Part shown: in pieces, positions 11,882 through 43,337 of the stretch
Layout: each line of letters starts with the position of its first letter
Numbering within the stretch: the first letter of the stretch is position 1
From: Octopus vulgaris
Lineage: Eukaryota
Length of the DNA: 64,000 nucleotides
NCBI GenBank assembly: GCA_951406725.2
Contig: OX597814.1
Coordinates: 142,228,001-142,292,000, forward strand
Direction of reading: 5' to 3'
Translations under genes and position numbers: made by a program
The notes under the pieces: generated by a model
Told to the model about the DNA's origin: nothing
What the model saw: the letters and a program-made list of their open reading frames with translations, nothing else
Databases searched by the model: none

Positions 11882-11923
<42 letters not shown>

Positions 11924-14520: not shown

Positions 14521-14562
14521 TGAAGTATATATATATATATATATATTTAATGGTTATATATA

Positions 14563-17373: not shown

Positions 17374-17586
17374 GTAATACGTATATATTGTCACCAAATA
17401 ATACATACAGACAGACAGACATGCATGTCACCACTAACAATGTATTTAGTAAGACTCTCGAGGTTTTGGCTTTACATATGGATTCTATATCTCCTGTTTA
17501 TACCATCTATCCAACTACCTAACTAACGTACTCTGTAAATATGGTCACCAGTAATATAAATTCAAACCATCATTATTATAAACTAA

Positions 17587-17995
17587 GGATCTTTTCGGTT
17601 TGACCGGCAGTTTTTAAAAATATTTTCCACGTAACTAAACACTTTTAAATTTCGTATACTGGTAGAATGTGTTTATAAAACATCTTTTTCTCTTGGCTTT
17701 ATTGAGAAAATTCTATGGTTTGTAAGATATTTGTTGTTTTTTCTTCAATTTCTGCAATTTCAACCAATCAATGACGTTTATTTGAGGTGAAAACATTCTG
17801 TGCCGTATGGATATGTCCCTCGTTTAAGAAATAGATTGGGTTTATTTACATTTGTGAAGAAAAAAGATACCCTTCCCCCCACCCCTAACCCTAAAATAGA
17901 TTGAAATGCAATAGATCGATACTAGGGTCATAATTATGGGTGACAATTTCATATGACACCGCTAGAAAAAACTGCCGTTCAAACCGAAAAGATCC
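17587..17995. mobile_element. Merlin-like MITE
   Basis: 29-bp TIRs GGATCTTTTCGGTTTGACCGGCAGTTTTT with one mismatch; perfect 8-bp TSD TAAACTAA; GG..CC termini. Confidence 0.8.
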
Positions 17996-19616: not shown

Positions 19617-19806
19617 TAGGGTGGCCCAAAAGTCACAGAAGGGTTGCAATCTTTGATCATTCTTATTTTTTACCTTTTTTTTTTAGGGATTTTATGGACT
19701 AGGTCCTGGAAATTAATTATGGAAAAATATGACACCGCACAACGCACCCAAGTGGTAAAATTTTTCTAGCAAAATCAGGGGTCAATTATTCAAACCCAGA
19801 GAGCCC
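19617..19806 (+). pseudogene. 5' fragment of a Tc1/mariner transposon (TIR plus transposase N-terminus)
   Basis: TIR (T)AGGGTGGCCCAAAAGTCAC, then ATG at 19719: MEKYDTAQRTQVVKFF*QNQGSIIQTQRA, resembling the DUF4817-type HTH start of Tc1/mariner transposases. Confidence 0.65.
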
Positions 19807-19845
19807 CAAAGAGAATTACACCTCATAAAGTGTACAGAATGGTGT

Positions 19846-20084
19846 GCATATAGCGTAGTGGTTAAGAGCACGTGCTACTAACCCCAGGATTTCGAGTTCG
19901 ATTCCAGGCAATGACTTGAATAATAACAACAACAACAACATAGAAAAATACCTTAGGAATGAGAACCCAGGTTACCCGAAGCAGGCTGAAGAGTATATCA
20001 GCCGAAACGTGTTAACAAACAAGATAAGGACAAATATCCGACAAATGTAAATAATGTACATAATTCTCTCAAATATAGAACTGT
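19846..20084 (+). mobile_element. tRNA-like head fused to a Penelope pLTR with degenerate hammerhead
   Basis: A-box TAGCGTAGTGG, B-box GAGTTCGATTCC, (AAC)n linker, then a body matching 5625-5802. Confidence 0.75.
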
Positions 20085-20345
20085 GATATCAAAAGAATAT
20101 CCTTTAATACAGCGCAACTCATTAGCGTTCTTAAAGAGCAATAAGAATATAAGCAAGAATGGAAAGCAAGTTTCAAATGTTTTAATGCACGTACATTTAT
20201 GCATTATCCGCTTTCATGTTTTGTATATTTGTACTGGAATTGATAATGTATAGGAATATGCCTATGATGCGAAGTGTTTTAATTTTTTAATTTGATAAAG
20301 GCACCTGACTTTAGAAATTTGTTCTCCATTCTTGCATATATCTTA

Positions 20346-20766
20346 TCTCTCTCTATATAAACGGCAGTTTGTCTGTCTGTGTGTCTGTCAGGTTGTACCC
20401 TCACCCTGACCACGGCTTTCAACCGATTCTGATGAAACTTGACACACACATAGCCCAATGTCATAATTCAAAACTAACGCAGCGAAAATTTTTAAAGGTT
20501 CCCCCAGTTCTGAAAAAAATCGATAAATTCGACATGGGGTCGAGAATCTAAGCTTTTTATATGCACCACATTTTCTGTCTAGGGGACACAACTCGACAGC
20601 TAGGGACAGCTAGGAACATCGTATACACAGAAGTATTCGAGTGAAGAGAAGACATTGCAACCTACACATGCGCCTTCGTTCCCTAGAGGGAAAGGACTAG
20701 ATTGGGATTAGTCGTTGCCTACTAGGGGCTCTTACATACCCGGGCAACGCCGGTCTATGCTGCTAG
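20346..20766 (+). mobile_element. Non-autonomous Helitron
   Basis: A|TC start, CCCGGGCAACGCCGG hairpin, CTAG end. Confidence 0.85.
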
Positions 20767-21189
20767 TATACATATAAAGCTGAAGTTGTCTGTGTGTGTG
20801 TGGCAGGTTTGGTAGCCTGCAACTAACACTATCTCCTCCGAGACCCTGCGGCGCAAGTTGACCAAAATTAAGAGTATGACAGAAGAAGTAGAAGAAAAAA
20901 ATTCAATTCGGACCATGTTAAGACCAAAAAATATTTACATCAAAAAGGTGCTTTTTTCTATGAAAATCCCTATTTTTTTTTACGATTTTTTGACTACTGT
21001 GTCGCCATTTTCGGTGTATTTCAACCAGAAAAATATTCACTTAATGAGAATAACAAGCTACATAATGCAAACATTTACTTTTCAAAAAAGATTGAAACTA
21101 TGTCAAAACTTTGTTAACGCGACATCAAAGTCTGCCATTTTAAGTGCAACTAAAAAACAAACTCGAGCAACGCCCGGTTATACTGCTAG
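20767..21189 (+). mobile_element. Second non-autonomous Helitron, in tandem
   Basis: 5' end resembles the 3583 element (ATAAAGCTGAAGTTGT); CTCGAGCAACGCCCGG hairpin; CTAG end. Confidence 0.8.
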
Positions 21190-21234
<45 letters not shown>

Positions 21235-21289
21235 GTACTCATGAGAGACATTAATGTTAGTGGCGGCAAGCTAAAATCGCATAGGCAAA

Positions 21290-21492
21290 ATCAACAGATA
21301 CAAAGGATTTGTGCTCTGCTTCTCTTCCTGACTTTTATAACGAGAACTCTCTACTCGAATGGACCATCATACCACAAAACTTGATTTAAAAAGGATTTAG
21401 CTAATCCTATCAGGTGGTGCTATTAAGTTAGACATGGGCTGGACCAACCTTTGGATGAAACATATCCAAGTTATCTAACATATCCAAGTTAT
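21290..21492 (+). mobile_element. CR1-group LINE 3' tail, diverged
   Basis: Matches 51680-51870 (AATCCTATCAGGTGGTGCTATTAAGTTAGACATGG). Confidence 0.7.
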
Positions 21493-21705
21493 ATAATTTA
21501 AACTTGTCTGAAGGAACATGCAGTACGTAATTCTAACTACATTGAATCTTTCAGTTTCCGTCCACCAAATCCACTCACAAGGCTTTGGTCAGCCCATGGC
21601 TATAGTAAAAGACACTTGTCCAAGACGGCCGAGCAGCAGGACTGAACATGAAAATCACTGATTCGCAGCCAGTGTGCAAAAAAGGAAGGACCCCTGTCTG
21701 TTTAC

Positions 21706-21888
21706 CTGCCCGCCTCTCTCTCTCTCCCTCCCTCTCTCTCTGTCCTTCCTTTTCGGCTGATTGGCTTCGAGCGGACGAGTGAGCGAATGAGAAGAGAGAG
21801 AGATGTTTTCGGTTACAGATCTGTTCGATCTTCTCAAAATACCATCACCACCGAAATATTGGTTCTTCAAGGATCACTCGGGTTTCAT
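21706..21888 (-). other. Candidate exon ending at CAG|GTAAAC; reading frame MKPE*SLKNQ..RERERGGQ has an in-frame TGA
   Basis: Unique sequence; donor is phase 0 relative to ATG 21888; TGA at 21874-21876 interrupts the frame. Confidence 0.3.
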
Positions 21889-22679
21889 TTCAAAACAATG
21901 AAAGCTGTTAAATTAACCATCCTTCATTACAGCTAATTAACGTGAAGCTTAGCAGGGTGGAAAATTGATTTTTTGTTTCTTCTTATTCCGAAATATGAAG
22001 AAGATCCTGCAAGTGAAAGGTGTCAATTGTCTCAAGAAACCTGTATTTATTTTTTAAATGTTGTAGTTTACCTTTGTTTACGTTGTTTTATATCATGCTT
22101 ATTTTATTTATACTTATTTAGTTATTCGTCTGACGATAATAAAAAGTAACGATAAACTGCCGTCTGTAATAAATCTTGTCCATTATTCTGCTTCGCGTGT
22201 ATATTTGTTCGTGTGGGTTTAATATAAAGGAAACGAAAGACAAATAAATAAATATGAGAGAGACAGTAGGTTGGGGTTGAAAGAAAGGACGAGAAAAAGT
22301 CGGAAAGAGCGAGAGATAAAGTAAAAGCATGATAGAAAGAGGGAGCATAATATAAAGAGAATGCATGATAAAAAGAAAGAAAGCGTGTAGAAAAGAGTAA
22401 GAGCGAGAGAATGAAAAGTGAGGCAGAAGAGAGAGAAACAGATAGAGAAGGGTGAGAAACAGAGGATAAAGGCTAATGCATTATGAAAAAGGAAAACTAG
22501 TGTTGAATGTAAGAGGAGAATAGAAAAACCGGTAGGACTGGAGAAGAAATATATATAGAAAGAATGTTTTAAAAGACACTAATTTATTACTATCTGTTAT
22601 CATTAACAGAATAATGGGACGGACAATAGAGGTTTTAGTAAACGACGTGAAAGACGGTCACACGCATATATAGATATTT

Positions 22680-23052
22680 ATTTCTTTTGCTTCTTTCAGT
22701 CATTTGACTGCGGCCATGCTGGAGCACCGCCTTTAGTCGGGCAAATTGAGCCCCCAGTAGTTATTCTTTGTAAGCCTGGTACTTATTCTATCGGTTTCTT
22801 TGGCTGAACCGCTAAGTTACGGGCATGTAAACGCACCAGCATTGGTTGTCAAGCGATGTTGGGAGGGGGGACAAACATACACTATACACATATATACGAC
22901 GAGATTCTTTCAGTTTCCGTCTACCAAATCCACTCACAAGACTTTGGTCGGCCCGAGGCTATAGTAGAAGACATTTGCCCAAGGTGCCACGCAGTGGGAC
23001 TGAACCCGGAACCATGTGGTTGGTAAGCAAGCAAGCACATAGCCACTCCTGT
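22680..23052 (-). mobile_element. SINE family A
   Basis: Full-length reverse-strand match. Confidence 0.9.
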
Positions 23053-23116
23053 GTTGTATTTATTTGTTTCGTTCATTGAAAAGACACCTTGAAGGATTTA
23101 GTACCGGTTGACATAC

Positions 23117-23134
23117 GTGAACTCGTATTTCCAT
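23117..23134 (-). CDS. Candidate alternative first coding exon MEIRVH with CpG-rich 5' UTR to about 23335
   Basis: ATG GAA ATA CGA GTT CAC|GTATGT, phase 0, upstream in-frame stop, CpG-rich unique island. Confidence 0.35.
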
Positions 23135-23531
23135 CGAAACTCAGAACATGAGCTCTACTGCGAATGATGACTACGGCTTCGGTGTCCGCGCAATCCGACG
23201 CGCTTGCTCGTCATTACAGCATCGACTGCGGCCGACCGTTGGATGTGGTCAGCGTTTCGTGAGGAACGTGGTGAATTCGGTGGTCGGAGCCGGTTCGACC
23301 CACCCCCGGGTGAATGCCGCCGCAAGTACAAGTAACCAAGAAAGTACACTGGGGCAAGGTACCATGAAGTAGGTGGGCTCGAACCTGGGACTTCGTGATT
23401 GGGATGCGAGGTCCTTAATTATTCAACCAGGCTTGCTCTATATACTGCGCATGTAGACAAGAACTAGAACGATTTGTAAAAAAAAATAATAAAATAAAAC
23501 ACCTTTCTTAGAGAGGATAGTATGCTCCACC

Positions 23532-23911
23532 CACTAGCGTAGTTGGGGGGGGGGGCGATAGGGGCAGTCCTTCCGGGCGGCACTTTTGTGTCTGCTGTAG
23601 ACAATATGTGTTTTTTGTGAGGTCCAGGGGCGGCAAACGGAAGGACGCTAGTGGCTCCACTCCTCGAAATCGTAGGTCCATGCCAATTGGTCTAGCTGCT
23701 GGCTTCTGCTCTAACCTGAGTATTATTCAAACCATGGGTTGGCATAGCAAGATTGTGTGTTCTACCCGAAGAAGCCCTTTAGCTTGTTCCTACCCACAAG
23801 ATGTTATATACAGGCTTATACAGAAGCAGGCCCAAAAGTGCCGCATCCATAAAAATCGTCATCTGAGGTAGACCGCCCCCTTCACCTCTGTCTCCTCCAG
23901 CTATGTTACTG
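23532..23911. mobile_element. Degenerate hAT-like non-autonomous element; related fragment near 8206-8340
   Basis: Imperfect TIRs CACTAGCGTAGTTGG / CCAGCTATGTTACTG; weak 8-bp TSD. Confidence 0.5.
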
Positions 23912-25794
23912 GTTCAAACACGCAATTGAACTCTACTGATATGCAGTCTGTTCACTAAACAGTTCAGCAAAAGACACCGATTAAGTAAGTGCCAGATTTA
24001 AAACCCTTCAAGGTTATGCTCCAGTATGGCCGTAGTTCAATGAATGAAACAATAATAAAATGAACTAATACAAATATGGGAGTTATTCTGGTTGTTATTT
24101 AGCCCCATTCAGCCCTAATGAAGCAGACCTATGATCAGAGATGATCCAGCTGTGCCGACCCCGTATTTTTCCTATGTACAGGGTACCCAAAATCACATTC
24201 GCTAATGTGTCTTTTAGTAAGACAGTAATGTTTGATTTGAGAAATGTTGGGGTACCATTTCTAGCAGGTTGTGGGAGGCGACGTAACAGATCGACCGGCT
24301 AAAAGTAGCAACCGAATCTCATTTAAATCACACATTAGTATTTGAAAGAGGGTACGATACAGTGGAAAATGTCGTTTGGGGAAAACGTGATGGCCACAGC
24401 TAGAATACTTTTCATCGGGGACTTGCTTGATCATAGCTGACCTAATTACAAAATGCACGGAGGGTTAATGAGGTAGTCACTAGCTGGTCGCTCGAATAGC
24501 AAGAAATAACAACCAAAACACAGTCAGCTGTTTAAGAAAAGGAAGTAGCACACATAAATTAATTTAGTCCTACACATTACTAAAAAGACGGGATTGTCGC
24601 GACAAGAATGTCATTTATTATAGGTCAGATGAGCTGAGGTTAACAATTAGATATGAAAAGAGACTTTATAGGTGTTAACAACAGGGTGTGTTCAGATTTT
24701 CATAAAGTACAATATTTTACGAGTTTGTACTGTTGTATAACTCCACGTCAAGGCAATTCATCACTCTAAATAATAATAACAACAACAATAATAATAATAA
24801 TAAATAATAATAATAATAATAGTGGTTTCAAATTTTGCCACAAGGGGCAAAAATTTTGGAGGACGGTATGAATCGATTACATCGACCCCAATGTTTAACT
24901 GGTACTTATTTTCTTTTCTCTTCTAGGCATAAGGCCCGAAATTTTGGGGGAGGGGGCCCAAAAGGATGAAAGGTAAAGTCGACCTCGACGGAATTTGAAA
25001 TCAGAACGTACCAATGGGCGAAAGGATCTAGTTTTTTTCATGCTTTGAAGATATGATGTTATGGAGAAAAAAGTTAGAGAAAAAGTTACAGAGGTTTAAA
25101 AATCGAAAAAAAAAAAATACTTGCTATTTTTAGCCAATAGCGAGATAGAAATTTTCTGCGTTTAGCGGAGCTGTGTCAACTTTAAGGTTGTACCCTGTGG
25201 GTTTTATAGTTTAGCGTTTGACCTGTTCATTGTATGTTTCTAAATGATCCGGTGGTGATGCTAGGCTTTGTATTTTTTTTTTCATAGCTCCCATGGTTAC
25301 CGAGATAATCTACTATAATAATACTCTTGTGTTTATGAATGAGAAAAGGAAGGGGTGATGTCATACTTGGTAGTGGGATGATGAAAACTGTATGCTGAAA
25401 AAAGTAAATCAAACAGCGTTTCAACTCTGTGAATATATGTGTGTGTGTGTGTGTATGTAAATGCGTAGGTGAATGTGTGTGTGTGTGTGTGTGTAAATGC
25501 GTAGGTGAATGTGTGTGTGTGTGTGTGTGCGTTTGTGCGCGCAATGGAAGTGGGATGGTTAATCTTTGTTCGCTTAGTATTTGGGTTTACTTTTGATTTG
25601 GTTGAATCTTGGTTGTTTCTTTTTTTTTTTTTTTTTGTCAGTTATTTTTAGTGCGTAACTAGTGCTTAAATTATCGAACTCGAAAGGATGAAAAGCAAAG
25701 TCGACCTCGGCGGAATTTGAACTCAAACGTAACAGCAGACGAAATGCCGCTGAGCATATCGCCCGGCGTGCTAACGTTTCTGCCAGCTCGCCGC

Positions 25795-25826
<32 letters not shown>

Positions 25827-26607
25827 TATTATTATTATAATAACCCGTTCCACTAAAGGCACAAGGCCTGAAATTTTGAGGGAAGGGAAAGACGATTACA
25901 TCGACCCCAGTTTGTTACCCCGAAAAGATGAAAGGTAAAGTTGACCTCGGCGGAATTGAACTCAACGTAAAAACGGACGAAATGCCGTTAAGCATTTTGC
26001 CCAGCGTGCTAACGATTCTGCCAGCTCGCCGCCATAATGATAATAATGATGATGACGGTGATAGTGATGATTTCTTTCACTAACAAGAGGGGCATAGATG
26101 AGGGGGACATCGAAAAGACAGACAACATTTTGCGTGGGGATTTGCATAAAGGGTGGAGAGAAAGAAGTGGAAAAGGCAGTGAAATACGATAAAAGTATAC
26201 ATAGTATACAAAGCATGTTATAACATGAACGCTGAAGTCCTCCTGATTCAGGAGAAACTCCAACTAGGGTCAATCAAGGAACCTTACTGATCCAGGGTTA
26301 CTCTGACTACAAAAAGGACCTGCCTTCTATCCTGCTCTTCAGTCTACAGGCGCATACTTAGAGTAGCGCCATTCACTCTAACCATTTTTACCACACGTCA
26401 GATAAGGAGGACATTACAAAAAATTGTGGAAGAAAGAAGGCGTCTCACATAAAATCGAGTGGGGAAAAAAAAAAGGTGAGTTGAAATTAGATGAAAAGTA
26501 TATATAGTGTTATGGGAGAATCCTGAACGCTCCCATGTGACTGAAAGTGGACTAGCTGATTTCAATAAGAAGTGAGTGAACTGTCGGCGGGTAGTTGAAC
26601 AGTGAAT

Positions 26608-28581
26608 CGCATTCATGTTCGGTGTTAATAGCAAAAAGGTTGTTCAAACGAAGTTGTCAATTGTGGGTTGAGGTTGTTAAGTTGAAGTAGTTGTTGTTTG
26701 TTGTTTAAATATGTATCGGTGTTCATTTGCACACTTTCGTCAACTGTTCTGTGCTGTCTTGAAACGGCTGGAATGGTGATGAGTGAGGATTGCGGCGCTT
26801 CGGGGCTGTCTTCTTCGGAAGAGGGGCTAGTGGGGGCATGGACGGAAGAATGGACAGGGAGAGGAGCTACTCAAGTGCCATGGAGGTGGGAAGTGGGTAG
26901 GTCGACCTGGCGAACTTGATGAGTTGCGGGGGATGCTGCATGCACGGGCTGATGATGTGGAATTGTCGCCACCCCAAGGAATTTTGGAGGGAATGCAGGG
27001 GAGGACTATCATCTGCAAGGTCTATTGATGGAGGAAGGGAAGATGGAAGTAGTGGCAATGGAGAAAGTGGAAGGAACACTAAGACCTGTCTGGCAGGATG
27101 TCGCATGTCTTGCCGGGGGAAGCGGGTATGGTACGGTGGGGGTTCGCCTCGGAGAGGCAGGTAAGGCGGGGCAAATTTCGGCGGCCCCGTTGAGAACGGA
27201 AGGTTGGTGCTTCTACTCAGGTACCTTGGAAGGAGGGCTTCCGGGGTGGCGGCTGCTATTCTCCTAGGCAATGAGGAAGTAGCGGTCTTCCAGGCTACCA
27301 AGGCGGAGGCAATGAACTGTAAGGGATGGACGTTGGTGTTGATTATCCAGGGATCGGTGGAAAGGATGATGGGGATGATAACAGTTGGAGATACGGTACT
27401 GAGAGTCAGGGTGGAGGGCAGAATCCTCCGATGCTTCAAATGTAACCTAAAGCCCCACATTAGAACGGACTGCCCTTCACCAACGGAGAGGAACCAAGAG
27501 AGAGCACAAGAAGAGCCAGCAGAGGATATACCAACGGGTGAAGTGAAAGAAGATGGTGTATCATGGGAAGTTGTAGATAAAAGAAGAAAAAGAAAACTAA
27601 TGAAACAGAAAACCGACACCCACTCCACACCTTCTCAACCTTCCCCTTCCCCCGCTGACACCTGACCCACCCACTCCTCTCTGACATAAAAACAAAAAAG
27701 AAAAACACTGACACACAGGAACCCCCAAACTACGCCTCCCCCAGCCAAGGAAGAAAATTGTTTTGTATGTATGCTATACGATACTTCGAATGAGAATCTG
27801 ATCCGAGAAACAATAACAATAAAAGACACAGTGTTTGTTAAAATGGAAGAGGGGGGGTCAATATAAAGGGGTGGAACGCATGCTTGTTGGTGTCGGAAGA
27901 ACAAAAGAAAAAAATAGAAAAACATAAATATGGGTAAACTACGTGGAGGGTAAACATTGGCAAAAGTAAATTGCCAGATGATATGTTATATGTGGACCTT
28001 ACAAAGGAGTGCAGAATGGACCTACTTGTTGTTAAGCAACAAGACGGGTAAGGGTGGTCAGGTGATGGTCTAGGGCTTAGGGGCGAGAGACCCCAGACCT
28101 TGGAAAAAAATAAAAACTTTGGTCGTCTTGTTGTAGTCGAGGGTTCTTCGTTGACGCCCGACACCACTGGGAGGTGGCCCTCGAAGTCGCTGGAAATGGA
28201 GATCTTCAGGTCCAAATTCTTGGACGGCAGAATGGACCTACTGGAAGGAACGGAGTTTAACATAAGAAGTGAAGCTGCTCGGAGGTGGGGCGAGTAGCTT
28301 CATTTTCATGTCATTTCTGGTTTTTCATGCGTTTTTCTTTGGTTTTTCCGCCTGTTTTGTGTCCCCACATGTAGTGTGTTGTCCCCTCTATGTTCGCCCC
28401 TAGTGGGCAATAAAAAAATCAGTGAAGCTGCTCGGAGGTGGAGCGAGTAGCTTCATTTTCATTTTCTCATGTCATTTCTTGTTTTTCATGCGTTGTTCTT
28501 TTTTTCCGCCTGTTTTGTGTCCCCACATGTGGTGTGTTGACCCCTCTATGTTCGCCCCTAGTGGACAATAAAAAAGCAGGA
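26608..28581 (+). mobile_element. Non-LTR retroposon encoding only a frameshifted ORF1/gag-like zinc-knuckle protein
   Basis: 16-bp TSD TAGTTGAACAGTGAAT (26592-26607, 28582-28597); CCHC knuckle CFKCNLKPHIRTDC in 27204-27665; A-rich duplicated 3' tail; no RT or endonuclease motif seen. Confidence 0.75.
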
Positions 28582-28639
28582 TAGTTGAACAGTGAATACT
28601 GAGTATCGTATATACGTTCGAGTAGTACGGAATGCAGTC

Positions 28640-29200
28640 TGTGTTAACATACTTCTGCTATAGGTTATATTTAGATAACCTCAACCTACTATTTATTTGT
28701 GTAATACCATTTTACACCAGATGTGTATACCTCACGTCGTAACACATAGTACCACCCAATATGTGAATACATGGATGATAAAGTGCTCCTGTTATAGTGT
28801 AGCCTCCAAGTAGGTCCGAATCCTACAGATCCAAGATCACTCTTACCACCAACTGTAGCTCTCCAATCTACAGGCACATGCTTATAGTAGTTTCATTCAC
28901 CTTAACCATTTTTGCTACTGTCACCTAACTTTCGATAAATTCGTTAAAGGAGAGAGTATTTCCCTCTCTACATTCATTGTTCTTTCCATGTAGAACATGA
29001 AAAAAGTTGACGTGGGCCTGATTTGATCGAAGAGTGTCTGACCTCAATCTTTTTAGCCTCGTCCAACACACAGTCTCTTCTGTCATACCTACCAAACAGC
29101 ACAAAACTGCCTCTCTGGCTATATTTAGGAAGGGCGGTGGGCCGGTAACCGGATCCGTCTTGCATGTGATATCGATTGCTCGTCATAATACCCGAAGTCA
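28640..29200 (+). pseudogene. Possible very old non-LTR RT remnant
   Basis: Fragments LLLFICV and EYMDDKVLL in RT motif order; heavily degraded. Confidence 0.25.
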
Positions 29201-29861
29201 ACAATGCTCAGTCACTGTACGACTGCGTGTGATACGGTTTCGTCGCGCATAGTTCTATCTGGCGGCACTTCTGTGCCTGTAGAGTTACCTCTAACTAGTT
29301 CTGCTCTTCTGCAGCACTTCTAGGCCAGGTATTTCCCAAAATTATCCATAATTGTCTCCGGCCCGAGAAATCCTCCGGAACAGAGCCGCCAGAGCGACAG
29401 ATTAGGAGACATTACTTACGAAAAAGAATGCGTTCACGTAGAAACTGATTTTCGCAAAAAAGAAAAGCAGGTGGGGCATGGAAAACAAATAAGGACTGAA
29501 ATGAGACATCCTATAGGGAATAATAACCATTTAGGGACAATCAGGAACCCCACAGACCCAGGATTATTCTACCATGAGCCCCACCCTCTGCCAAGGTCCA
29601 GTTCCCTTTTATCCTTTCGGAATTAAGTAACTGGCCCTAAAAAATTGCTATCCTTGTTAAAATTAGAATTATTATACGATACAGGTATTCACATATCTTA
29701 AACAGAGGGAGATGGAATGACGCAGTTTCAGAAACGCTGGAGACCCATTGGTTTACACCAGAGGTTTTCGATGTGGGCGATACCGCCCCCAAGGGGGGCA
29801 CCGGGCATGTCGACGGGAGCGCTAAGCTTTAGGGGGGGGGTGAGAACAGAGTTATATTAAA

Positions 29862-30221
29862 CTAGCAGTATCGCCCGGCTTTGCAAGGGAAATAACTATA
29901 AAGCATTTTTAGAGTTATAGCCAAAAAATAGCAAAAAAATGGAAAAAAAATGATGGTAAATTTTTTTTTAGAGTAAAAAAGGTCGAGTTGCGTCCCTTAA
30001 ACAGTCTGTGGTTTGTGTTTCTGATTCTCGACCCCATGTCGGATTTATCGATTTTTTTCAGAACTGGGGGAACTTTTCAAAATTTTCGCTGCGTTAGTTT
30101 TGAATTATGACATTGGGCTATGTGTGTGTCAAGTTTCATCAGAATCGGTTGAAAGCCGTGGTCAGGGTGAGGGTACAACCTAACAGACACACAGACAAAC
30201 TGCCGTTTATATAGAGAGAGA
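29862..30221 (-). mobile_element. Non-autonomous Helitron, chimeric, nested
   Basis: Minus-strand TC start and CTAG end; 5' part matches 20346-20550, 3' part matches 3750-3882. Confidence 0.85.
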
Positions 30222-30422
30222 TTTCACCTATACTAGTAATCACATTTTACATGATAAAACTAGTAATGGTTATTATAATAAAATCGCATCAGGCACAGGG
30301 AAGTCATTAATTTGTAATGCATAAAGTAAATTTGCAACTTTTGTCTATATTAATTTTTTTATTATTTCACTGTTAAAAACTTATACAACAATCCAATTTT
30401 AGGTAAAAATTTATAAATTATC

Positions 30423-30821
30423 TTTTCTACTCATGGAACAAGGCTCGAAATTTTGGGGGAGGGAGCGAGTCGATTAGATCGACCATAGTACGCAAACTGG
30501 TACTTAATTTATGGACCCTGAAGAGATGAAAGGCAAAGTCGACCTCGACAGAATTTGGATTCAGAACGTAGCGGCAGACGAAATACCTATTTCTTTACTA
30601 CCCACAAGGGGCTAAACACAGAGAGGACAAACAAGGACAGTCAAACGGATTAAGTCGATTATATCGACCCCAGTGCGTAACTGGTACTTAATTTATTTAC
30701 CCCGAAAGGATGAAAGGCAAAGTCGACTTCGGCCGGAATTTGAACTCAGAACGTAACGGCAGGCGAAATACCGCTAAGCATTTCGCCCGGCGTGCTAACG
30801 CTTCTGACAGCTCGCCGCCTT
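30423..30821 (-). mobile_element. SINE family B with TSD, nested
   Basis: TSD AAAATTTATAAATTATC on both sides. Confidence 0.9.
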
Positions 30822-31296
30822 AAAATTTATAAATTATCATCCATGTTTAAGTCAGTTTAGTTGTGATACCTTATTCTCCACTTGGGAGGGCGCTAGGCAT
30901 AACAACTACTTAAAAGGGGTGAGACGCTAAAAACAGGGGTGGGGGTTAAACCACTGGTTAACACCAACAACTGATTGCAAACTTTGGTAAAAGACATCTA
31001 ATTTAGTCAGCAATTTAGGGTACTAGTCACCCTATCATTCAGTATTTGACTGGTACTTGATGTATTGGTAACCCACGTCCCTCTAGAAAAATAAAATGCT
31101 ACATCAACTTCAGTAAGATTTTAACGTAAAGCGACGTAGTTAATAATAACAATACTGCATGATATTTCATTTGCCACTTTGCCGTCCATAGCAATAATAA
31201 TGAATTACTTTTTCTTTTAATGTTTGGACTGCGGCTATGCTGAGGCATCGCCTCGACGGGATGTTAGTCAAACGAATCGACCCCAGTACTTATTTT

Positions 31297-31833
31297 GGCA
31301 AGACTTCCGCCCGTCCCTCACCAAAAACCACCCTTAAAAAAATTTTTTTTCGACTCAACCCCCCCCCCCCCCCACACACACACACCTTTTCGGCTACGGG
31401 GAATACGAATCTGCAAAAAAAAAAATTGGCAAAAATCGACTTTTCTAAATTACCACCCCCACCCCCATTTCCTTCATTTTTAACTTTTTTCAAAATATGC
31501 GGGAAAATACAGAGATTATGATTCTGAAGAAAATTACCAAAAATCTTTGAAGAATTTTTTTTTTTTTCTAAATATACGGACATCATGATTCGGACAAAAC
31601 TTTCAAAACATTTCTGTACTTACGGTTAGGGTTAGGATTTTAGGATTAGGGTTCATGTTAGGGAAAAAGTCAAAATTGAAGAAGTTGGGAGGAAATGGGA
31701 TGGGCAATTTCACAATACCGACTTTTGGCAATTTTCCGGAACCTCCGTATCGGAAAACGGGGATTTTTAGGAAAAAAAATTACAAAAATAAACTAATTTG
31801 AGAGAAAAATAGGGTGGGGGCGGAAGTCTTTCC
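31297..31833. mobile_element. Merlin-like MITE inserted in a family A SINE tail
   Basis: TIRs GGCAAGACTTCCGCCC / GGGCGGAAGTCTTTCC; perfect 8-bp TSD CTTATTTT. Confidence 0.8.
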
Positions 31834-32089
31834 CTTATTTTTAAGTCAGGCATTTATTCTATCGTTCTCTTAGCTGAACTAATAAATGTAAACAGACCCA
31901 CATCGGTTATCAAGTTCGGAGGTGGGACGTCACACGGCATAACTCCAGTTTCTACTATATGCATATAGTAGAGAGGAATTTACATCAACCCTTGTATTCA
32001 ATCGGGACTTTTATCGAATTCGAAAGGATGAAGATCAAAGTGGACCTCAGCAGAATTTGAACTCAGCAGAAAGAATTAGTATATATTAT

Positions 32090-32410
32090 TTTCTCTGTGA
32101 GCACAAAGCTTGAAATTTTGAGGGAGGGGGCTAGTCAAAATGTACCATCCCGAAAGGATGAAAGGCAAAGTTAACCTCGGCGGAATTTGAACACAGAACA
32201 TAAAGACAGACGAAATAATTATTTCTTTACTACCCACAAGGGGCTAAACACAGAGAGGACAGACAAACGGATGAAGTCGATTATATCGACGCCGAAAGGA
32301 TGAAAGGCAAAGTCGACCTCGGCGGAATTTGAACTCAGAACGTGACGGCAGACGAAATACAGCTACGCATTTCGCCCGGCGTGCTAACGTCTCTGCCAGC
32401 TCGCCGCCTT
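32090..32410 (-). mobile_element. SINE family B
   Basis: Reverse-strand match with internal deletions. Confidence 0.8.
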
Positions 32411-32611
32411 ATGAACTCAGTTATATTAATAATAATAATATTTATTAAATACTAAGGGTTCACAAAATCATTTAGGGCAGTGCAGGACGATACAATGTGG
32501 GAATGCATAAAGAAGCGTGTAATTAAAAGAACAAATGAAAATATATGTTTTCAGCAATGAAAAATTCCCCAAGTGAGGGAGATTTCGGAGAATTACTTTT
32601 GGAAATCTCAC

Positions 32612-32638
32612 CCACGAAAACACGGTCTTTCTGACCAT
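32612..32638 (-). CDS. Candidate alternative first coding exon MVRKTVFSW
   Basis: ttcaATGG start context; TGG|GTGAGA donor, phase 0; unique flanks 32450-33250. Confidence 0.45.
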
Positions 32639-33516
32639 TGAAGCAAACAGCCTTCTCCCCGTTAATGGTACGAAGATATTATAAAGACAGATACGAATAA
32701 CACGGAAGTAACCTGGGACAAGAAAGCTTGTCTCAGGTTGTGGTCCGACAAAAAGCATAATTAAACCGGTTACAAAACATCAATATCGTATAACATAATA
32801 ATAACAATAATAATAATAGTAATAATAATACCCCCTTCGCCATGATTCCACGGACAGTCCTGAAGAAGAAAAGGAGCGGGTGGGTTCTATGGTCAGTGGG
32901 GTGTTGTGGTGTTTACTTCCAAAGAAATCCACGAAAACGAGCGAATGGGACGGTTCAGTACTGACGCGAATTTACAAAGACATTATTACACTAACAACAA
33001 TAGTTCGACTGTGACGAGTAAAATCGTTGAAATTTCTCTTTTTTTATTTTTAGATGTGTTCTTTTTTTTCAATATTTTTGTTTTGTTTGATTTGTTATTT
33101 TGCCTGGAATACAAAAAAAAATTAAAATAAATAAAGTCAGACCACTTGTGGTGGTTGTCGATGGGAGATTAGTCGGTTGGTGCTGGACATCTCGCTAGAA
33201 CTGACCGATAATATTTGGATAGACAGACAAAAGAAGATAACAATGTATCAGAAGAAATAACAAAGGAAGAACCACATATACTTACATACGCTCGTTTCAT
33301 ATATACATATATAAACACGCACGCGTACACACACTACCTTGCACAACTGCGTTCTATTTGTTTTTCATTTTTTTTGTTTTTGTCGTATTTTCTTTTGGGT
33401 CCATTAATTTGTTCGAAACCACAGAACACATGAAGGAAGAAAAAATCATACAAAAGATAAGCCCGAAACACAGTCGTGTTTTCAACACGCGTTTAGAAGA
33501 AAAGCCTTGTTCCCCC

Positions 33517-33915
33517 CCACACACACACTCATACACATTGCCTATCACTCATATATCTATAACTATATATATATATACATCTACACACACTATATATATA
33601 TACACACACATATACACACACTATATATATACACATACTATATAAGTACACACATATACACACATAGATGTACACACATATACACATACTATATATGTAC
33701 ACACATACGTACACACATATACATACATATACACACAGATGTACACACATATACATACAGATGTACACACATATACACACCCACATATATATACATATAC
33801 ACACACATACATACATATACACACACGCATACATACACACACACATATATATATACATACATATATACATACACACATACATATATACACACACATCTAT
33901 GTAAGTACACATATA
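33517..33915. repeat. Degenerate CA/TA microsatellite
   Basis: Read directly from the sequence. Confidence 0.9.
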
Positions 33916-34384
33916 CTGCACTGGCAAGGATTTACTCTAACGCATTATCGATTCTGCTACTCTACGACGCCTCATCTATGAAAGAACATATACACGTGTT
34001 CTTGCATAGTTATTAGGCGTCGAGCGGTTGGAATCGATAAAGAACCGGGAATAAGCACCTTCTAGCAGTAGTTTTAGTCGTGTCCCGCTGCGTTCCGAGT
34101 TCGAATCCCGCCAAAGTCTGAGGCAATGGATTGCAGAACCTGTAGAGCGTCGGACAAAATTCCTGCGATATTTAAGCTTCAGACTGAGACGATCCCTGAG
34201 TTGAGAACATCGCTTTCACTTTCTACTACTACTACTACTAATAATAATAATAATAATAAACTTAAAATTGTGTTTCTCAACCATTTTTTTTTTACTTGTT
34301 TTGGACACTTTTTGGTTCTTATTTTACTCTGCTGGACCTTCATAGTCACTCGGTGTTTAAATAAGTCCCATTATATTTTTATAA

Positions 34385-35175
34385 TGGCTGTGTGGTAAGA
34401 AGTTTGCTTCCCAACCACATGGTTCCAGGGTTCAGTTCCACTGCGTGGCACCTTCGGCAAGTGTCTTCTATTATAGTTTCGGACCGACCAAAGCCTTGTG
34501 AGTGGATTTGGTAGACGGAAACTGAAAGAAGCTCGATGTATGTATGTATGTATGTATATATATGGCGCTGCTCCAGCATGGCCGCAGTTAAATGATTGAA
34601 ACGTGTGAAAGAATATATATGTATATCTTTGTGTGCCTATGTTTGACCTCCCACTATCACCACCACCATCGCTTGACAACTGATTTGTATATGTTTACAT
34701 CCCCGTAGCTTAGCGATTCGGCAAAAGAGGCCGACAGAATAAGTCTCGGGGTCGATTCCTTCGACTAAAAGGCAGTGCTCCAGCAGGGTCACAGTCAAAA
34801 TGACTGAAACGAGTAAGAGATGATAAATATTATTAGGCATTTTATGGAAAAAGGCTGATAAAATAGTTTGTGTATTATAGGCGCAGTTGTGTGGTAAGAA
34901 TCTTGATTCTCAACCACATGGTTCCGGGTTCAGTCTCAATGCGTGGCACCATGGGCAAATGTCTTCTACTATAGCCTCAGGCTGACCAAAGCTTTGTGAG
35001 TTTACATCCTTATAACTTAACGGTTCGGCAAAACTGACCGATAGAATAAGTACTAGGTTTACAAAGAATAAGTCCTGGGGTTGGTTTCTTCGATTGAAAA
35101 AAAAAACCTTTAAGGCGGTGCTCCAGCGTGGCCGCAGTCAAATACTTGAAACAAGTAAACGAATAAAAGAATAAA
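34385..35175 (+). mobile_element. Two adjacent family A SINEs, rearranged or deleted
   Basis: Heads near 34385 and 34880, each with a family A tail. Confidence 0.8.
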
Positions 35176-35621
35176 AGATCACCGGGATCTTCACGCTTTG
35201 AGTACTCCACCTAGGTCACCTCTGCCTTTCGACCTCATTGACGGTCGATAAAATATCAAGTATACCAGTCAAGTATAACGATCGATTTAAATATTCCTTT
35301 AAAACATCCTAGCTGTGAATGGAATTGTAATAGAAAACTTTGCCTTTCATCTCGCCAGTACAGCTAAATATTGTTTCATTCAACAGCTAAACATTGTGTT
35401 TAGCTGTTGAATGAATTTACCACATTGCTTCATGTCATTGTGCTGATGTTGTCGATATTGTTAAACACCCGGGTCAGGACTGACCGAATAGGCCTATGAT
35501 TGCAGTCGCTCCTTTTGTGACCATCCAGTATATCTGTGACTATACTGTTTAAATATAACCTGTCTGTCTGTCTACCTACTTCTTTTATCACTATATGTAT
35601 ATAGCTATCCATCATAGGCCT

Positions 35622-35785
35622 GTGATCGACGCCATTCCAACTTTGACCATCCAGTGTTACTTTAAATCAGTGACTACACTTTTTCGAATCACGTCTGAAG
35701 GCGGTGATCGACGTCATTCCAACTTTGACCATCCAGTGTTACTTTATATCAGTGGCTACACTTTTTCGAATCAAGTCTGATGGCG
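35622..35785. repeat. 82-bp tandem duplication
   Basis: GTGATCGACG..CATTCCAACTTTGACCATCCAGTGTTACTTTA.. at 35622 and 35704. Confidence 0.9.
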
Positions 35786-37458
35786 GTAGGATGTGATTTT
35801 GAGAGAGATTGACTGCTCTTTCTGGTTAGTTGAATGATTGCATAGAATAGGCATGGATGACCTTTTTCGAGAAGCGGGCCGCAAGAATCATGACTCATCA
35901 ACAAGCGGGCCACACTACCAAAAATATCCAAGGTAACTTGCTCGTTAGGCGTCCAATTCAGAAAGGCCTGTGGGCTGTAGGTTGACCATAATTAGCGTAG
36001 AGACCCCCTAATTGGTTTGTTAAGCTAATGTAAAAATTTACTGTTCATGGCAGAATCGGTTGGGTCCTGGACAAAATAATCAGCGGTGTTTAGGCATGTG
36101 TCCCCAGTTTTAGTTCAAATTCCGTCGAAATCAATTTTGACTGCTACTTGATCAATCGACCGAAGAATTGTGAAAGACAAAGAGAACTCGAGTTGATCTA
36201 ATCAATTATACCCCACCTCCTCATCTGTGAATATGTGGACTCGTGTTCATCTCAGTCACTATTCGAACTGCGATAGTAATACCCAGAACGGTACAGAAAT
36301 CGTGATCCGGTTTCGATTTACAGTTGGAACTTCGCTCCATCATGTCACTAATGCTTTCGTAGAATGTTAAAAATCCTTAACTTTACAATTCTGCAAAATC
36401 AGTTTAAAACCACCGCCACTAGTAACACAAGCCTTTGTTATCAGAGTCGATCTTGAGCCAACGTGGTAGGTTCGGTTTTTATGTGGTTACTGATCTGCTA
36501 GAAATAGTAGCCAAATCTCTCACAAACCACACCTTACTGTCTTTGGAAAGGACAGATGGATAATGTAGTGTGGAGTATAACTATGCTATGAAAAGGAAAA
36601 GGCAGGATAGTCACGACTGAAAAGCCATTGATCATAGGTCTGTGCAATCAGGGCTGACTTGGGATTAAACCAGAGGAATACACTAGCTAATATGTCGTTC
36701 ATTAAAAGCTTGTGTATTCCTAGATCGCTATGCCTAACAAACAAGATTGTCAAGGTGAGAAAGTCTTTGGTTGACTCGATCAGGGCTTTCTTTCCTGGTG
36801 TTTAACAACTACAACCTGGTCTTGATACCTTACTAATGCCCACCACTACGCTGCTTATGACTTTGGGGGAAAAGTATGAACATCACAACAACTCATTCAT
36901 GGTACAGACCTCAAAATCTGAAGCATAAGCCTGTACTTTAACTGTTTTCTTTCGGACCAACGTGGATGCCTTCTATGTGGTTGCTGACATGCTAGAAATA
37001 GCAGTCAAATGTTCTTTGAATGTTTGCTTTTAAGTAAAAACGATGTACACAATAAACAATGCAATCTCTCCACTTACGGAAAATAAAAGCAAAGTGCGCA
37101 TTGGATATCACAGTCTTTCTTACAAGATGGTCATGGTTGGAATGCTTCTGTTCGCAGGGTTCCACAGTTTCGTGAGTTATCATCAGTGAATACAGAACTT
37201 ATTAGGTCCATACGATAAATACCAGTAATGTACTGAGGGATGAGGGACGGAGGTTGATTCATATCAGTTACATTCCTTCTTATAGCTTTAACCTATTGTT
37301 AGAAATCAGTACCGAAAACTATGTCTTTGAATTAGTTTATACCACATTTTGGGTGATAACGTGTGTTTATTCAACATCAAGTATTCCCGTGTCAACAAGG
37401 AGGCTTCTTCTATGGTGGTCGGTCTATTTGCTAGAAATAGATTGTAAATCACCCAAAC

Positions 37459-37825
37459 ATGGCTGTGTGGTTAAGAAGCTCGCTTTGCAACGACGCGGTT
37501 TCAGGTTCAGTCCCATAGGGCGGCACCTTAACCAAGTGTCTTCTACTATAGTCCCGGGCCGACCAATGCCTTGAGAGTGAATTTGATAGACAGAAACTGA
37601 AGCCCATCGTGTGTGTGTGACCCCACCCCCCAACAACCGTTTGACAACCGGTGTTTGCTTATATCCCCGTCACTTAGTGGTTCGGTAAAAGAGAACGATA
37701 GAATATGTACCAAACTTGACAACAACAACAACAAACTCATAAATACTAGGGTCAATTTGTTCAACTAAAACACTTCAATGCAGAGCTCCAGCCTGGCCGC
37801 AGTCCAATGACCGAAACAAAAGATA
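37459..37825 (+). mobile_element. SINE family A, diverged
   Basis: Head, core and tail match. Confidence 0.8.
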
Positions 37826-38292
37826 ATATATAAAAGGTAAACCAGTCTACTGCGTTAAAAAAGGGGGACATATTGGATTGCACCCCTTCCACAGCCTTTT
37901 AACAAGGAGAGAAATCAGTGCCTGTGATTTTTCACAAGGTTTCAGAGACTGGGAAAAAGCGGAAGGTATCCTTAAACCAGAAATCTGGGTTCAAAATGCT
38001 TGCAACAAAATGGGTTTTGCTAAATGTATCTTAGGTGCTAGGCGGTGAAGGGATGAAGTCTACCAAGCAAGTAAGCCAGGATTGGATTTGAACTCAGAAC
38101 GTCAAGAACCGAAGCATAAACTACAAGGCGTCGCATCTTGACTGGTGCGCTAACGCTTCGGCGAATTTACCGCCTTTGAATGGTAGTTTATATATGCACC
38201 TAGGAAAAATAAAAGGCAAAGTTGACCGGAGCGGGATTTGAACTTAGAACGCAAAAGAAAAACAACGGAATAAATAAATAAATAAATAGAAG

Positions 38293-38444
38293 CAGGCGTG
38301 GTTGGGTGGGAAGAAGCTTCTCCCTAAGCACATGATTCCAGGTACAGTTCCACTGTTTGGTACTTTGGGTGACTGCTTTCCACTATAGCCTCGGGCCAAC
38401 CAAAGACTTGGGAGTGGATTTGGTTGACGGAAATTGAAAGAAGC

Positions 38445-38484
<40 letters not shown>

Positions 38485-38795
38485 CGAAGATAAAGAATAT
38501 GCACTCCACCCCTATTCGACGTTTAGGGTTAGGATTACGCCGAAAACGGGTGGTGCACGTATTCTTTACCTCCGCTATATATATATATATATGTATGTGT
38601 GTGGTGGGGCATATCCCCTCCCCACTGCTTGACGACTGGTGTTGGTTTGTTTACGTCCCTGGTTCGACAAAAGAACCGATCGGATAAGCACCAGTTTTAA
38701 AATGTAAGGAATAAGCACCAGAGTCTACTCGTTCCACTAACATTTTTCAAAGTAGTGCCCCAGCATGGCTGCAGTCTAATGACTGAAACAAACAA
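38293..38795 (+). mobile_element. SINE family A with a 93-bp hairpin insert (38483-38575)
   Basis: Insert ends GGCGAAGATAAAGAATATGCAC / GTGCACGTATTCTTTACCTCCGC lie within the (TA)n. Confidence 0.75.
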
Positions 38796-39344
38796 ACGAT
38801 AGAGATAGAAATATTTTATTTTATTTTCGTTAATTTATTTGTTGTTTTTTATTTGTTTCTTTTGGGGTTGGAACATAACAAAAATCCCCGCGAGAAATAT
38901 TAATCATATGGCTGAGTTTCCGGATCAAACTCCGCCAATCATACTTCTGACATCCCATAAAAAAAAAAAAATTTATTAAACGACCCTGGAGGGGTGAACG
39001 GCAAAGTTGATCTTGGTGGGATTCGATACCGAAATCAAGAAGTAGGAACAGACAAATACCGCAAGACATTTCGTCTGATACTGAAATAACTCTCTCAGTT
39101 TGCCGCCTACTAAGATTATAGGTAATTCTATGAACCCTCTAATTGAAAAGACGAGATGATCTTATCCAGAAGGTCTTTTTTTTAAAGGTCTCTTCGATTA
39201 CAACTGACGGGCAGCTAAGCAACATCTACGTTTCTTCCTTTCCCCTGAGGTATGGAACTTTGAAGGACAGCTATTCCAGAATTCCTCCCAGTTAAAAGCC
39301 CTCATATGGGGAGAAAAGAAATAAGTTATACATACATACATGCA

Positions 39345-39391
<47 letters not shown>

Positions 39392-39726
39392 TAAAGAATG
39401 ATAGTCATCGTATGCCGCGAGTTGTTGACTGTATTCATTCATATAAACAAATTATTCCAAGCTTGGAATTTAGTATTACCAAAATATTATTGATGCGAAC
39501 TAATTCGCGTGCTTCTTTTTGGGGCTTGTTTTCTAAGATATTATTTATGCTCAGCGGCTTTCAATTCAGTCATATTTATATACGTATTAAAAAAGAAACT
39601 ATTTGAATTTATCGTAGATTTTGTTTATGAATATATCCATAATATTATGCTTGCATATTTAAAAGATCACGGTTTTCCTTTGTGTATACGCTTCTCTTCC
39701 TCGTATATTTGTGTATATATAAATGG

Positions 39727-40020
39727 AATATATCTCCCAGACCACATGAACACATATATATATATATATTCATTCATTCACTCATACAGTACATATAAAC
39801 ACACATGTGTGTAGGTATATATAAATATACAAGCACACATCTCGTACATAAAGATGCATACATATGCATAAATATATCTCCCAGACCACATGAACACATA
39901 TATATATATATATTCATTCATTCACTCATACAGTACATATAAACACACATGTGTGTAGGTATATATAAATATACAAGCACACATCTCGTACATAAAGATG
40001 CATACATATGCATAAATATA
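39727..40020. repeat. 144-bp tandem duplication
   Basis: AATATATCTCCCAGACCACATGAAC.. at 39727 and 39871, apparently identical. Confidence 0.9.
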
Positions 40021-40449
40021 CATATGTATATATATTGCAGAAATACACGTATATGAATTTGAATATATACCACAAGGTTTTTTTTAATGCAAATACAAAG
40101 TGTAAGAAAAAAAGATGAAAAGATAATGTATATTATAATGATGAATAATAAAAATCGAACTTGAAAATTTTGTTATAGTGAACCAAATTCGGAAGCACAG
40201 AAGAATGGTAAATGGGGGGGGGGACATATAAACGAAGAATACAATCGCTTCACATGTTGCGAAGAATAATAACAACACGTGCTCGCCCTCTCTTGTTGTT
40301 TAGTGGTGTTAGCATCCATTCTCCTGCTGTTCTCGAAGACTACGAAGACTATAAGAAAAGATAATTGAGGGGCGAGACAAACAGTCGGAATCGAAAGCCG
40401 ATAATATTAGGGTTAAAAGTCTTCGGTAAATAAATCTTCCATCACCTAC

Positions 40450-40521
40450 CTTCGAATCCCGTTTTGGTCGTAGACGTTTGTGAAATTCCATCATTTTACC
40501 CAAAGCATTGTCAAAGTGCAT
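40450..40521 (-). CDS. Candidate alternative first coding exon MHFDNALGKMMEFHKRLRPKRDSK
   Basis: gaccATG start context; AAG|GTAGGT donor, phase 0; 24 codons in a unique island. Confidence 0.55.
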
Positions 40522-41772
40522 GGTCGGTCGCCCACGCTGTCTTTTTGCAGTTCTCACTCTCTCTCTCACTCTCTCTTTCTTTCTTATTATTTCTCCCTCT
40601 TCCTTCTCCTAGAAGTCTTTGTTATAAATCAACTAAAGTATACTTCACCCGCATATCGATATTTACAAAACATATACAGTATACATGTTAATGTTTAATG
40701 TTTTTTTTTACTGAGTGTACAGTGCATGTGTGCGAGTTTCTTTTTTCTATTCACTTTCCGCTCCTCTTTCTTTCATATATATAATATATATATATGTATG
40801 TGTGTGTGTGTGTGTGTGTGTGTAACTTCGTGCCCTTAAATTTATATACTTCCGCTCAACCACAAACCCACAAATACGGTTGGAATTGTGTGAAGACCAA
40901 ATAATATTCGTTGAAGAACATTAGGGGCTTACATACACACATATATATATATATATACACACACACAATTTGTGTGATTGTGTGTATATGCTATGTGTAT
41001 AAACACAATTACTAAATCACATATTCCGGGTGATTTGTTTTTTCTTTTTCTCCGTAAAGAAAAAGTTTGGAATACACAACTCCAATTATAAATACATACG
41101 TACTTACAAGTGCGTGTGTGTAATTACATATATATATATATATATATATATATGTAATGTGTGTGTGTGTGTTAAAGAGAAAGAGGGGGAGAGAGAGGAA
41201 AAGACAGGCAGAAGAGTATCAGTAGTCCGTCCAGTAGCGCTGTTTGTAAAATTGGTAGCAACAGATAGAGGCAGTTGAGCCGGCTTACACGAGCAGGTTA
41301 GAGTAATATAAGAGGAAGGGGTTAAGATGGGATTAATCCGTGTAAACTGAACGGCCGATGGGATTCCTCTGCGTGAATCTTAAACAACTGTCAGTGACAG
41401 GGAAGTAGATAAAGGAAGAGATAGATAGATAGAATGGAAAGGGAAGTATCGAGGAAAGTAAGAAGGATAGAAAAAGGAAAGAATAATAACGAAGTATAAA
41501 AACAAACAGAGAGATGGGAGCGAGAAATAGCGAGACGGAGGACGAGAGGAGTAGTAAAAGGTATACGTACATACATACGAACATACGTATATACATACAC
41601 GTGTGTGTATTTGTGTACGTATGTGTCTATTTATGTGTGTGTATCTGTGTACCTATGTATCTATTTGTGTGTGTGTGTGTGCGAGACAGAAAGAGAGAGA
41701 AGTAATTTAATACTTTGGTGTTAGAAAAAAAAAATCAGGAAAAAAGAAAAGGTAGAGTGAATGTGTGGGACA

Positions 41773-41812
<40 letters not shown>

Positions 41813-42038
41813 CTCTCTCTTACTGTGTTTGTCTGTCTTTCTCTCTCGTATACACACCCTCATACGCACACATGTAGTGAAGGAGAAAAAGAAGAAAAGA
41901 AGCGGTAGAGGGGTAGGGGGGAAATTAAGCGAAAAAAATTGAGTGACAAACATATCGAATAAGAGAGAGAGAGAAAAAATAAGAAAGCGAAAACATTGAT
42001 AGACAGAATGAGAAAGAGAAGTACAAAAGAAAAGAGAA

Positions 42039-42084
<46 letters not shown>

Positions 42085-42439
42085 GAAAGAAAAGAAGAAT
42101 GAAAGACAGAATTAGGAAAGTGGAGAGGAAGAAAGTAATAAGAGTAAGTGATAGGCACAGATAGGGTAGAAAAATAAACATGAGAAAACTAGGGAAAGAG
42201 AGAATAAAGGAATAAGGAATAAAGAGTGTGAATGGTAGAGAAAGATAAAAGAAAGTAAAAGTAATAAAGATAGACGGAGGGAGGGAAACCGAGGTGTGGG
42301 GGAGAGAGAAGAAGAGGTGGTAAGACTATAGTGAAGAGTTGATGTCGCCGTCGCCGTCGTAATGGAAAGTGAGAGGGAATTTGAGACAAGAGGTTTTGAT
42401 ACACAAGATTGAGGGGAACCTCGATGATGTATCACACAA

Positions 42440-43110
42440 TTCTCTTGTTATTGTAGTAGTGGCTGTTGTTGTTTTTAATAGTGTTGTTGTTGGTGGGTGT
42501 TTGTGCGAGAGATAGTGTTGTTTGTGCTTATTGTTGATGCTGTTGGTGCTGGTGTTGTTGTTGTTGTTGGTGGTGGTGGTATGTTGATACTGAAGATAGT
42601 TGTGGTGGTTGCGTTGTTGTTATTGTTGATAGTAGTAGTAGTAGTAGTAGTGGTAGTGGTGGTGGTGGTGGTAGTAGTAGTGGTAGTAGTGGTAGTAGTT
42701 GTTGTTGTAATGGTAGTAGTAGTAGTGGTAGTAGTTGTTATTGTTGATAGTAGTAGTAGTAGTAGTAGTAGTGGTAGTAGTTGTAGTAGTAGTAGTAGTT
42801 ATGACAGTGCAGCCTAGCAGTGCTAGTGGTTTTGGTGGTGTAGGTGGTGCAAGAGGCGGTGGTAGTATTGGTTGTGGTAGTAGTAGTAGTAGTAGCGGTG
42901 GTGTTGATTGTGGTGGTGGTGGTGGTGGAAGTGTTGGTGACAATAGTCGTGATTGTAGTAATAGTGATTGTGTAGGTGATGTGATGATACGGCGGTAACG
43001 GTGCCAATAATGGCAGTGGTGGAACTCTCAATAATGCTAGTGTGTAGGTGCTAGAAGTGATAGTGGTACTATGGTACTATCGACAGTGGCAGTAGTGGCG
43101 GCGGTAGTTT
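42440..43110. repeat. Compound GTA/GTG/GTT trinucleotide low-complexity tract
   Basis: Read directly from the sequence. Confidence 0.9.
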
Positions 43111-43214
43111 TTTATTGCAGTTGGTGTTGTTTGTGTCTCTATTAAAACGTGCTACTACGGCAAAACACCATGTTCGATTTTTCGCTTAGAGGAAATTCTC
43201 TTCCCCCCACGTAC

Positions 43215-43337
43215 GTCGCCAATGCACTTCTGAAAGAATGAACGCCACAAAACCCCCATTCTCCTCTTGGCTTTGTATGAATAAGAGATCAACCGACGAT
43301 GAGCAGGGACAGTGTTTCGAATCCCAATCAAAGTCAT
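43215..43337 (-). CDS. Candidate alternative first coding exon (MTLIG..KRR)MGVLWRSFFQKCIGD
   Basis: ATGs at 43337 and 43259 (gagaATGG) are in frame; GAC|GTACGT donor, phase 0. Confidence 0.45.

Follow-up and report, generated by a model that had tools for sequence, protein, structure and literature searches.

The stretch analysed here comprises 64,000 nucleotides of the Octopus vulgaris genome (contig OX597814.1; G000:C1:142228001-142292000 of a 2.8 Gb genome) and is referred to below, at its full length, as the window, with position 1 as its first letter. We found that it lies inside the very long 5' intron region of a minus-strand gene for a PDZ scaffold protein of the GRASP/tamalin/CYTIP family. 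A preliminary description of the same stretch had proposed five short minus-strand units, each ending at a phase-0 donor, as alternative first exons of one large gene. Overall, this architecture is real, the proposed units are partly mis-called and the isoforms are already in public annotation.

A PDZ scaffold gene extends across the window

A search with the peptide encoded at 40521-40450 returned two proteins from two candidates, both containing PDZ domains: LOC115218042 of O. sinensis and the corresponding Argonauta protein (E 1e-6 and 2e-4). When the protein was mapped to the genome, we recovered the 40521-40450 exon and, also on the minus strand, exons at 142010705-141987651. Six coding exons are shared; they were identified as exact-match runs that cover residues 25-346 of P0003, with splice sites judged by eye to be canonical; the joins between exons were taken from public gene models and from proteins predicted from assembled public runs. 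The common phase-0 acceptor is located at G000:C1:142010705, approximately 217 kb past window position 1, and the first intron from the donor at 40450 to this acceptor measures 257,744 bases. Together with the isoforms described below, this acceptor supports the proposal of one large minus-strand gene in which different short phase-0 N-termini are joined to a single exon beyond position 1. A Pfam search of P0001 and P0010 detected PDZ families only. An ab initio exon search of the 200 kb downstream of the window gave nothing convincing; it ended 17 kb before the shared exon, and it overlooked the MVYIVQ exon and the microexon listed below.

Alternative N-termini in public isoforms

Thirteen named isoforms, X1-X7 of O. 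sinensis (LOC115218042) and X1-X6 of O. bimaculoides (LOC106880114), carry five different leaders (MHFDN.., MAKG, MVYIVQ.., MSFTSY.. and ML) that all run into VIPKVSS at the common phase-0 acceptor. The N-termini are mutually exclusive and of a single phase, and four of the five were placed at GT donors upstream of 142010705. The segments of the gene placed in and around the window are as follows.

Window 40521-40450 (142268521), minus strand: MHFDN.. first exon, isoform match with a GT donor
Window 40450..40521, minus strand: coding part of this exon (E1a), 24 aa (MHFDN...RDSK), phase-0 donor AAG/GTAGGT, isoform identity
Window 32843-32832 (142260843), minus strand: probable MAKG first exon (E1b), placed by peptide scan with a GT donor
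Window 1..32831, minus strand: intron part, first intron(s) of the PDZ scaffold gene, from exon placement
142175776-142175762, minus strand: symmetric microexon of 15 bases (5 aa) flanked by AG..GT, O. sinensis isoform X2
142051536-142051396, minus strand, outside the window: MVYIVQ.. first exon, 47 aa, isoform match with a GT donor
142016175-142016116, minus strand, outside the window: MSFTSY.. first exon, 20 aa, isoform match with a GT donor

The microexon sits mid-way in the 258-kb intron. The MSFTSY leader is Cys-rich at its end and is of unequal length in the two Octopus species. For the ML exon and for the MKRKQ.. leader of P0014, the peptide scan gave no convincing match. Our guess for ML is 142043508-142043503 (minus strand), where a strong donor (score 4.39; donors were scored throughout with a generic weight matrix) comes after Met-Leu.

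E1a is one real first exon out of the five proposed. P0001, P0003, P0004 and P0008 begin with exactly its 24 residues, and its donor has the best score of the candidate set (6.17). The leader contains 7 Lys or Arg per 24 residues and is mildly amphipathic, with a hydrophobic moment of 0.55.

Within the window, E1b is likely another first exon; the preliminary description had overlooked it, although it lies just 194 bases upstream of the ATG reported there at 32638. Isoforms X5 of O. sinensis and X4 of O. bimaculoides (P0009 and P0006) begin with MAKG. The combination MAKG/GT occurred once in 464 kb; the other strand and five permuted peptides on either strand gave no match in 11 controls. The donor (GGG/GTATTA) is weak, with a score of -2.17. 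At 32860-32875 (minus strand), 28 bases ahead of the MAKG donor, we also observed a pyrimidine tract followed by AG; the MAKG exon could therefore instead be internal and follow a non-coding first exon.

The other four proposed units

The remaining units of the preliminary description are the following.

43215..43337, minus strand: candidate, 41-codon ATG-to-GT frame with donor GAC/GTACGT, unsupported; single-copy, no homologue
32612..32638, minus strand: candidate MVRKTVFSW, rejected; inside an old dispersed repeat at about 32460-32659
23117..23134, minus strand: candidate MEIRVH, rejected; inside an old dispersed repeat at about 23112-23349
21706..21760, minus strand: candidate donor CAG/GTAAAC after a GA-rich tract, unsupported; no in-frame ATG

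The four ATG-to-GT units that had been described, E1a included, are all present where they had been placed, with the peptides and donors that had been read. For the fifth, at 21706, the donor is there but its stop-free frame contains no Met. The description of the units as lying in repeat-free islands holds for 43215, whose core matched itself alone in a genome repeat search, but not for 23117 and 32612, which fall in dispersed repeats.

The frame ending at 43215 stays open up to a further ATG at 43337 (41 aa). Its donor is the weakest of the candidates (0.68); no protein shared three 5-mers with the 43337-43215 frame, which is weak evidence, and no Pfam match was detected for it. The unit at 32612 (donor score 3.3) was rejected as a repeat: 32460-32790 has six other matches at 69-83% identity. 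As aligned, neither of two copies has the donor, which falls within a 4-base insertion absent from both, and one of the two has the ATG. The unit at 23117 was likewise rejected as a repeat, with at least 40 other matches to 23060-23450 at 71-85% identity (40 of 199 candidates were scored). Among five aligned copies, one has the ATG and GT in the same places, two lack both and two alignments are too short. At 21706, the peptide RERERGGQ is a translated GA microsatellite, and other genome matches of the region span the GA tract and its flank alone; the donor scores 4.02 and may belong to a non-coding exon. The two repeats (23112-23349 and 32460-32659) represent two old dispersed families that matched neither Rfam nor Pfam in the parts searched, and Rfam gave no match in 21000-44500.

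Compared with the N-termini of 124 proteins, the four candidates reached best local scores of 16-32, while their self scores were 31-217. Their peptides (MGVLW.., MVRKT.., MEIRVH and ..GGQ) begin none of the 13 isoforms. Since isoform numbering follows decreasing length without gaps, a full-length form with a leader of 6, 9, 15 or 41 residues would be expected among them if annotated.

The common strand and phase of the units had been offered as a signal. Counting phase-0 units of 4-30 codons with a donor score of at least 0, we found 65 on the minus and 82 on the plus strand of the whole window, and 29 and 37, respectively, in 21600-43400; at a score of at least 3, there were 9 and 22. Units in phases 1 and 2 were about as frequent as those in phase 0. 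Because such units are equally common on the other strand and in the other phases, the shared strand and phase do not exceed chance and reflect selection by eye, as the preliminary description itself had feared. The four other units are likely chance ATG-to-GT matches.

Sequencing runs

No run recorded as RNA was among those listed for 40300-40750. This segment was present wholly or partly in 20 of 24 run rows, 14 of them RNA by guess alone, and was not used as evidence. Four runs were aligned to 21500-33560, a region that excludes 43215 and 40450, and dispersed-repeat contigs dominated. No contig end fell at 21706, 23117, 32612 or 32832 among the 24 listed (1732 more fell outside the list, as did 347 joints and 78635 pieces). 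The bin 32784-33186 was covered in all four runs at a depth of 3-10, possibly from DNA in the runs, and one 208-base contig was located at 33008-33217; the bin 23112-23514 likewise had low cover in all four.

Weighing the alternatives

We consider it highly probable that the window lies in an intron of the PDZ scaffold gene, that this gene has five phase-0 N-termini, and that 40521-40450 encodes one of them and 32843-32832 likely another, the remaining four units likely being chance. Several points weigh against this interpretation. The exon joins come from gene models and predicted proteins, not from junction reads. The proposed octopus-vertebrate orthology rests on PDB matches and source names. 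The MAKG donor is poor and the true exon may be outside the 464 kb covered by the search, and the ML first exon has no convincing genomic place. For E1a, the hydrophobic moment reaches only about the 95th percentile among windows. Exons at 43215 or 21706 that are rare or restricted to certain tissues may be compatible with their absence from the 13 isoforms, and shorter, higher-numbered isoforms may exist outside these 13. In a rival reading, most or even all of the five units are genuine first exons, too rare or local for annotation, two of them having been exapted from repeats. The gene does employ many phase-0 first exons, 43215 and 21706 are single-copy except for the GA tract, and the donors at 32612 and 21706 outscore some annotated ones; moreover, the MAKG exon could use 32612, 220 bases downstream of its own donor, as an alternative donor. 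We nevertheless regard this reading as very unlikely: the four units begin none of the octopus isoforms, their N-terminal similarity scores are low, two are repeats, 43215 has no homologue, 21706 has no ATG, and the other strand carries such units just as often. Of the five first exons proposed, only 40521-40450 is supported.

A narrower reading accepts 40521-40450 as the sole real exon in the window and places the MAKG exon elsewhere, 32843-32832 being a coincidence. The weak MAKG donor runs into an ATT-rich microsatellite, and the exon would have just 12 coding bases. The single MAKG/GT in 464 kb has, however, the expected strand and a position flanked by first exons of the gene, and the 11 controls gave none, which makes a coincidence unlikely. 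Almost no credence can be given to an origin of the units in a gene for an ankyrin or a calcium-channel beta subunit, the analogues named in the preliminary description. Short basic phase-0 leaders are typical of those genes, but the shared exons encode a protein with PDZ Pfam matches only, and the genome's single match to PF12052, the N-terminal domain of the beta subunit, lies on another contig (G000:C2:172705401-172705520). For 40450, such an origin is refuted by the isoform identity and the PDZ exons.

Family placement and conservation

Pfam placed a PDZ domain at residues 63-146 of P0001. Among 58 PDB entries matched, the top four are GRASP PDZ (E 8e-16 to 1e-15) and CYTIP PDZ (3.5e-9), and the next family follows at 2.6e-8. 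After the PDZ domain, a crude count of heptads in residues 141-190 gave 8 of 14 hydrophobic a/d positions in the best register and no more than 5 of 14 in any of the remaining six. The protein ends in ..VTRL, and a class I PDZ-binding motif ([ST]-x-[LVI]) ends 63 of 66 homologues. The family domain list was taken from PMC9104363 and PMC9983901, the former including a proline-rich region in tamalin. No such region was evident by eye in the octopus protein, whose tail is rich in Ser, Asp, Glu and Cys; we therefore place it in the GRASP/tamalin/CYTIP family and not with tamalin proper. According to PMC9983901, the duplication that produced GRASP and CYTIP was chordate, which would make the octopus gene co-orthologous to the two.

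The MHFDN leader is identical at 22 of 24 positions in Argonauta (P0002) and at 16 of 24 in P0013, whose cuttlefish-type cluster includes a Sepia pharaonis protein; the latter value is similar to that for the shared body, in which 205 of 321 aligned residues are identical. In the same cluster, the MVY leader is identical at 14 of 47 positions and a leader ending in ML also recurs. Conservation in relatives, which the preliminary description had expected of its units, was found for 40521-40450 (Argonauta and the cuttlefish-type cluster) but not for 43215, for which the peptide search, as weak evidence, returned no homologue. At the level of proteins alone, named isoforms that differ N-terminally ahead of the PDZ domain were identified in Pomacea (5), Patella vulgata (3), Ostrea (2), Mytilus californianus (2) and Lingula (2). 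In literature covered at the level of titles and abstracts, with most subscription journals outside it, we found no paper that describes tamalin in cephalopods or alternative first exons in the family.

Other features of the window

A 367-codon frame at 52401-53504 (plus strand) has a reverse-transcriptase domain (RVT_1, E 3e-14) and resembles a LINE fragment; it was the only one of nine window frames to match Pfam. Five protein-like frames, at 45313-46161 (minus), 27165-27665 (plus), 57379-57798 (plus), 5216-5515 (minus) and 54080-54589 (plus), had no Pfam match, and by impression we take them to be decayed transposon pieces. An exact 144-base tandem duplication at 39727-40020 is possibly recent or an assembly artefact.

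Proposed function of the leaders

The gene encodes a constant body, composed of the PDZ domain, coiled coil and PDZ ligand, to which exchangeable leaders are added from separate upstream exons. Each leader would have its own promoter and, most likely, tissue- or stage-specific expression. According to PMC9104363, the leucine zipper of tamalin binds cytohesins and its PDZ domain binds receptor tails; the cytohesin GRP-1 is pulled down by worm GRAS-1, which has a PDZ domain and a coiled coil (PMC9983901). From such family knowledge (PMC9104363), the octopus protein would connect receptor tails, bound by its PDZ domain, with cytohesin Arf-GEFs, bound by its coiled coil, which by analogy would make it a cytohesin/Arf scaffold. 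A further possible role of the E1a leader, which is basic and mildly amphipathic, is to tune membrane targeting. A bolder version is conceivable yet doubtful: promoter choice would be a conserved coleoid targeting switch that sends the scaffold to different membranes or cell types with MHFDN, the long MVY, the Cys-rich MSFTSY or the near-empty MAKG and ML, swappable leaders would be general in molluscs and brachiopods, and 43337-43215 would be a further unannotated leader.

Alternative first exons are commonplace and these isoforms are already in automated public annotation; the practical gain is in mapping: the exonic segments of the window, the 258-kb first intron and the 15-base microexon. 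If the leaders direct localisation, the gene would offer a clean test of how an invertebrate tamalin/CYTIP co-orthologue diversifies without gene duplication, with relevance to receptor trafficking in cephalopod neurons.

Comparison with known systems

The closest systems are O. sinensis LOC115218042 and O. bimaculoides LOC106880114, which are the same gene and whose isoforms already include both window exons. Vertebrate GRASP/tamalin and CYTIP and C. elegans GRAS-1 resemble the octopus protein in having one PDZ domain, then a heptad-rich segment, a low-complexity tail and, at the C-terminus, a class I PDZ-binding motif. The octopus gene differs from GRASP and CYTIP in its at least five alternative N-termini distributed over 258 kb. 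Ankyrins, CACNB2 and PSD-95 alpha/beta are multi-promoter genes with short phase-0 first exons; the proteins are unrelated to the octopus scaffold, but these genes likewise place mutually exclusive leaders on a constant body.

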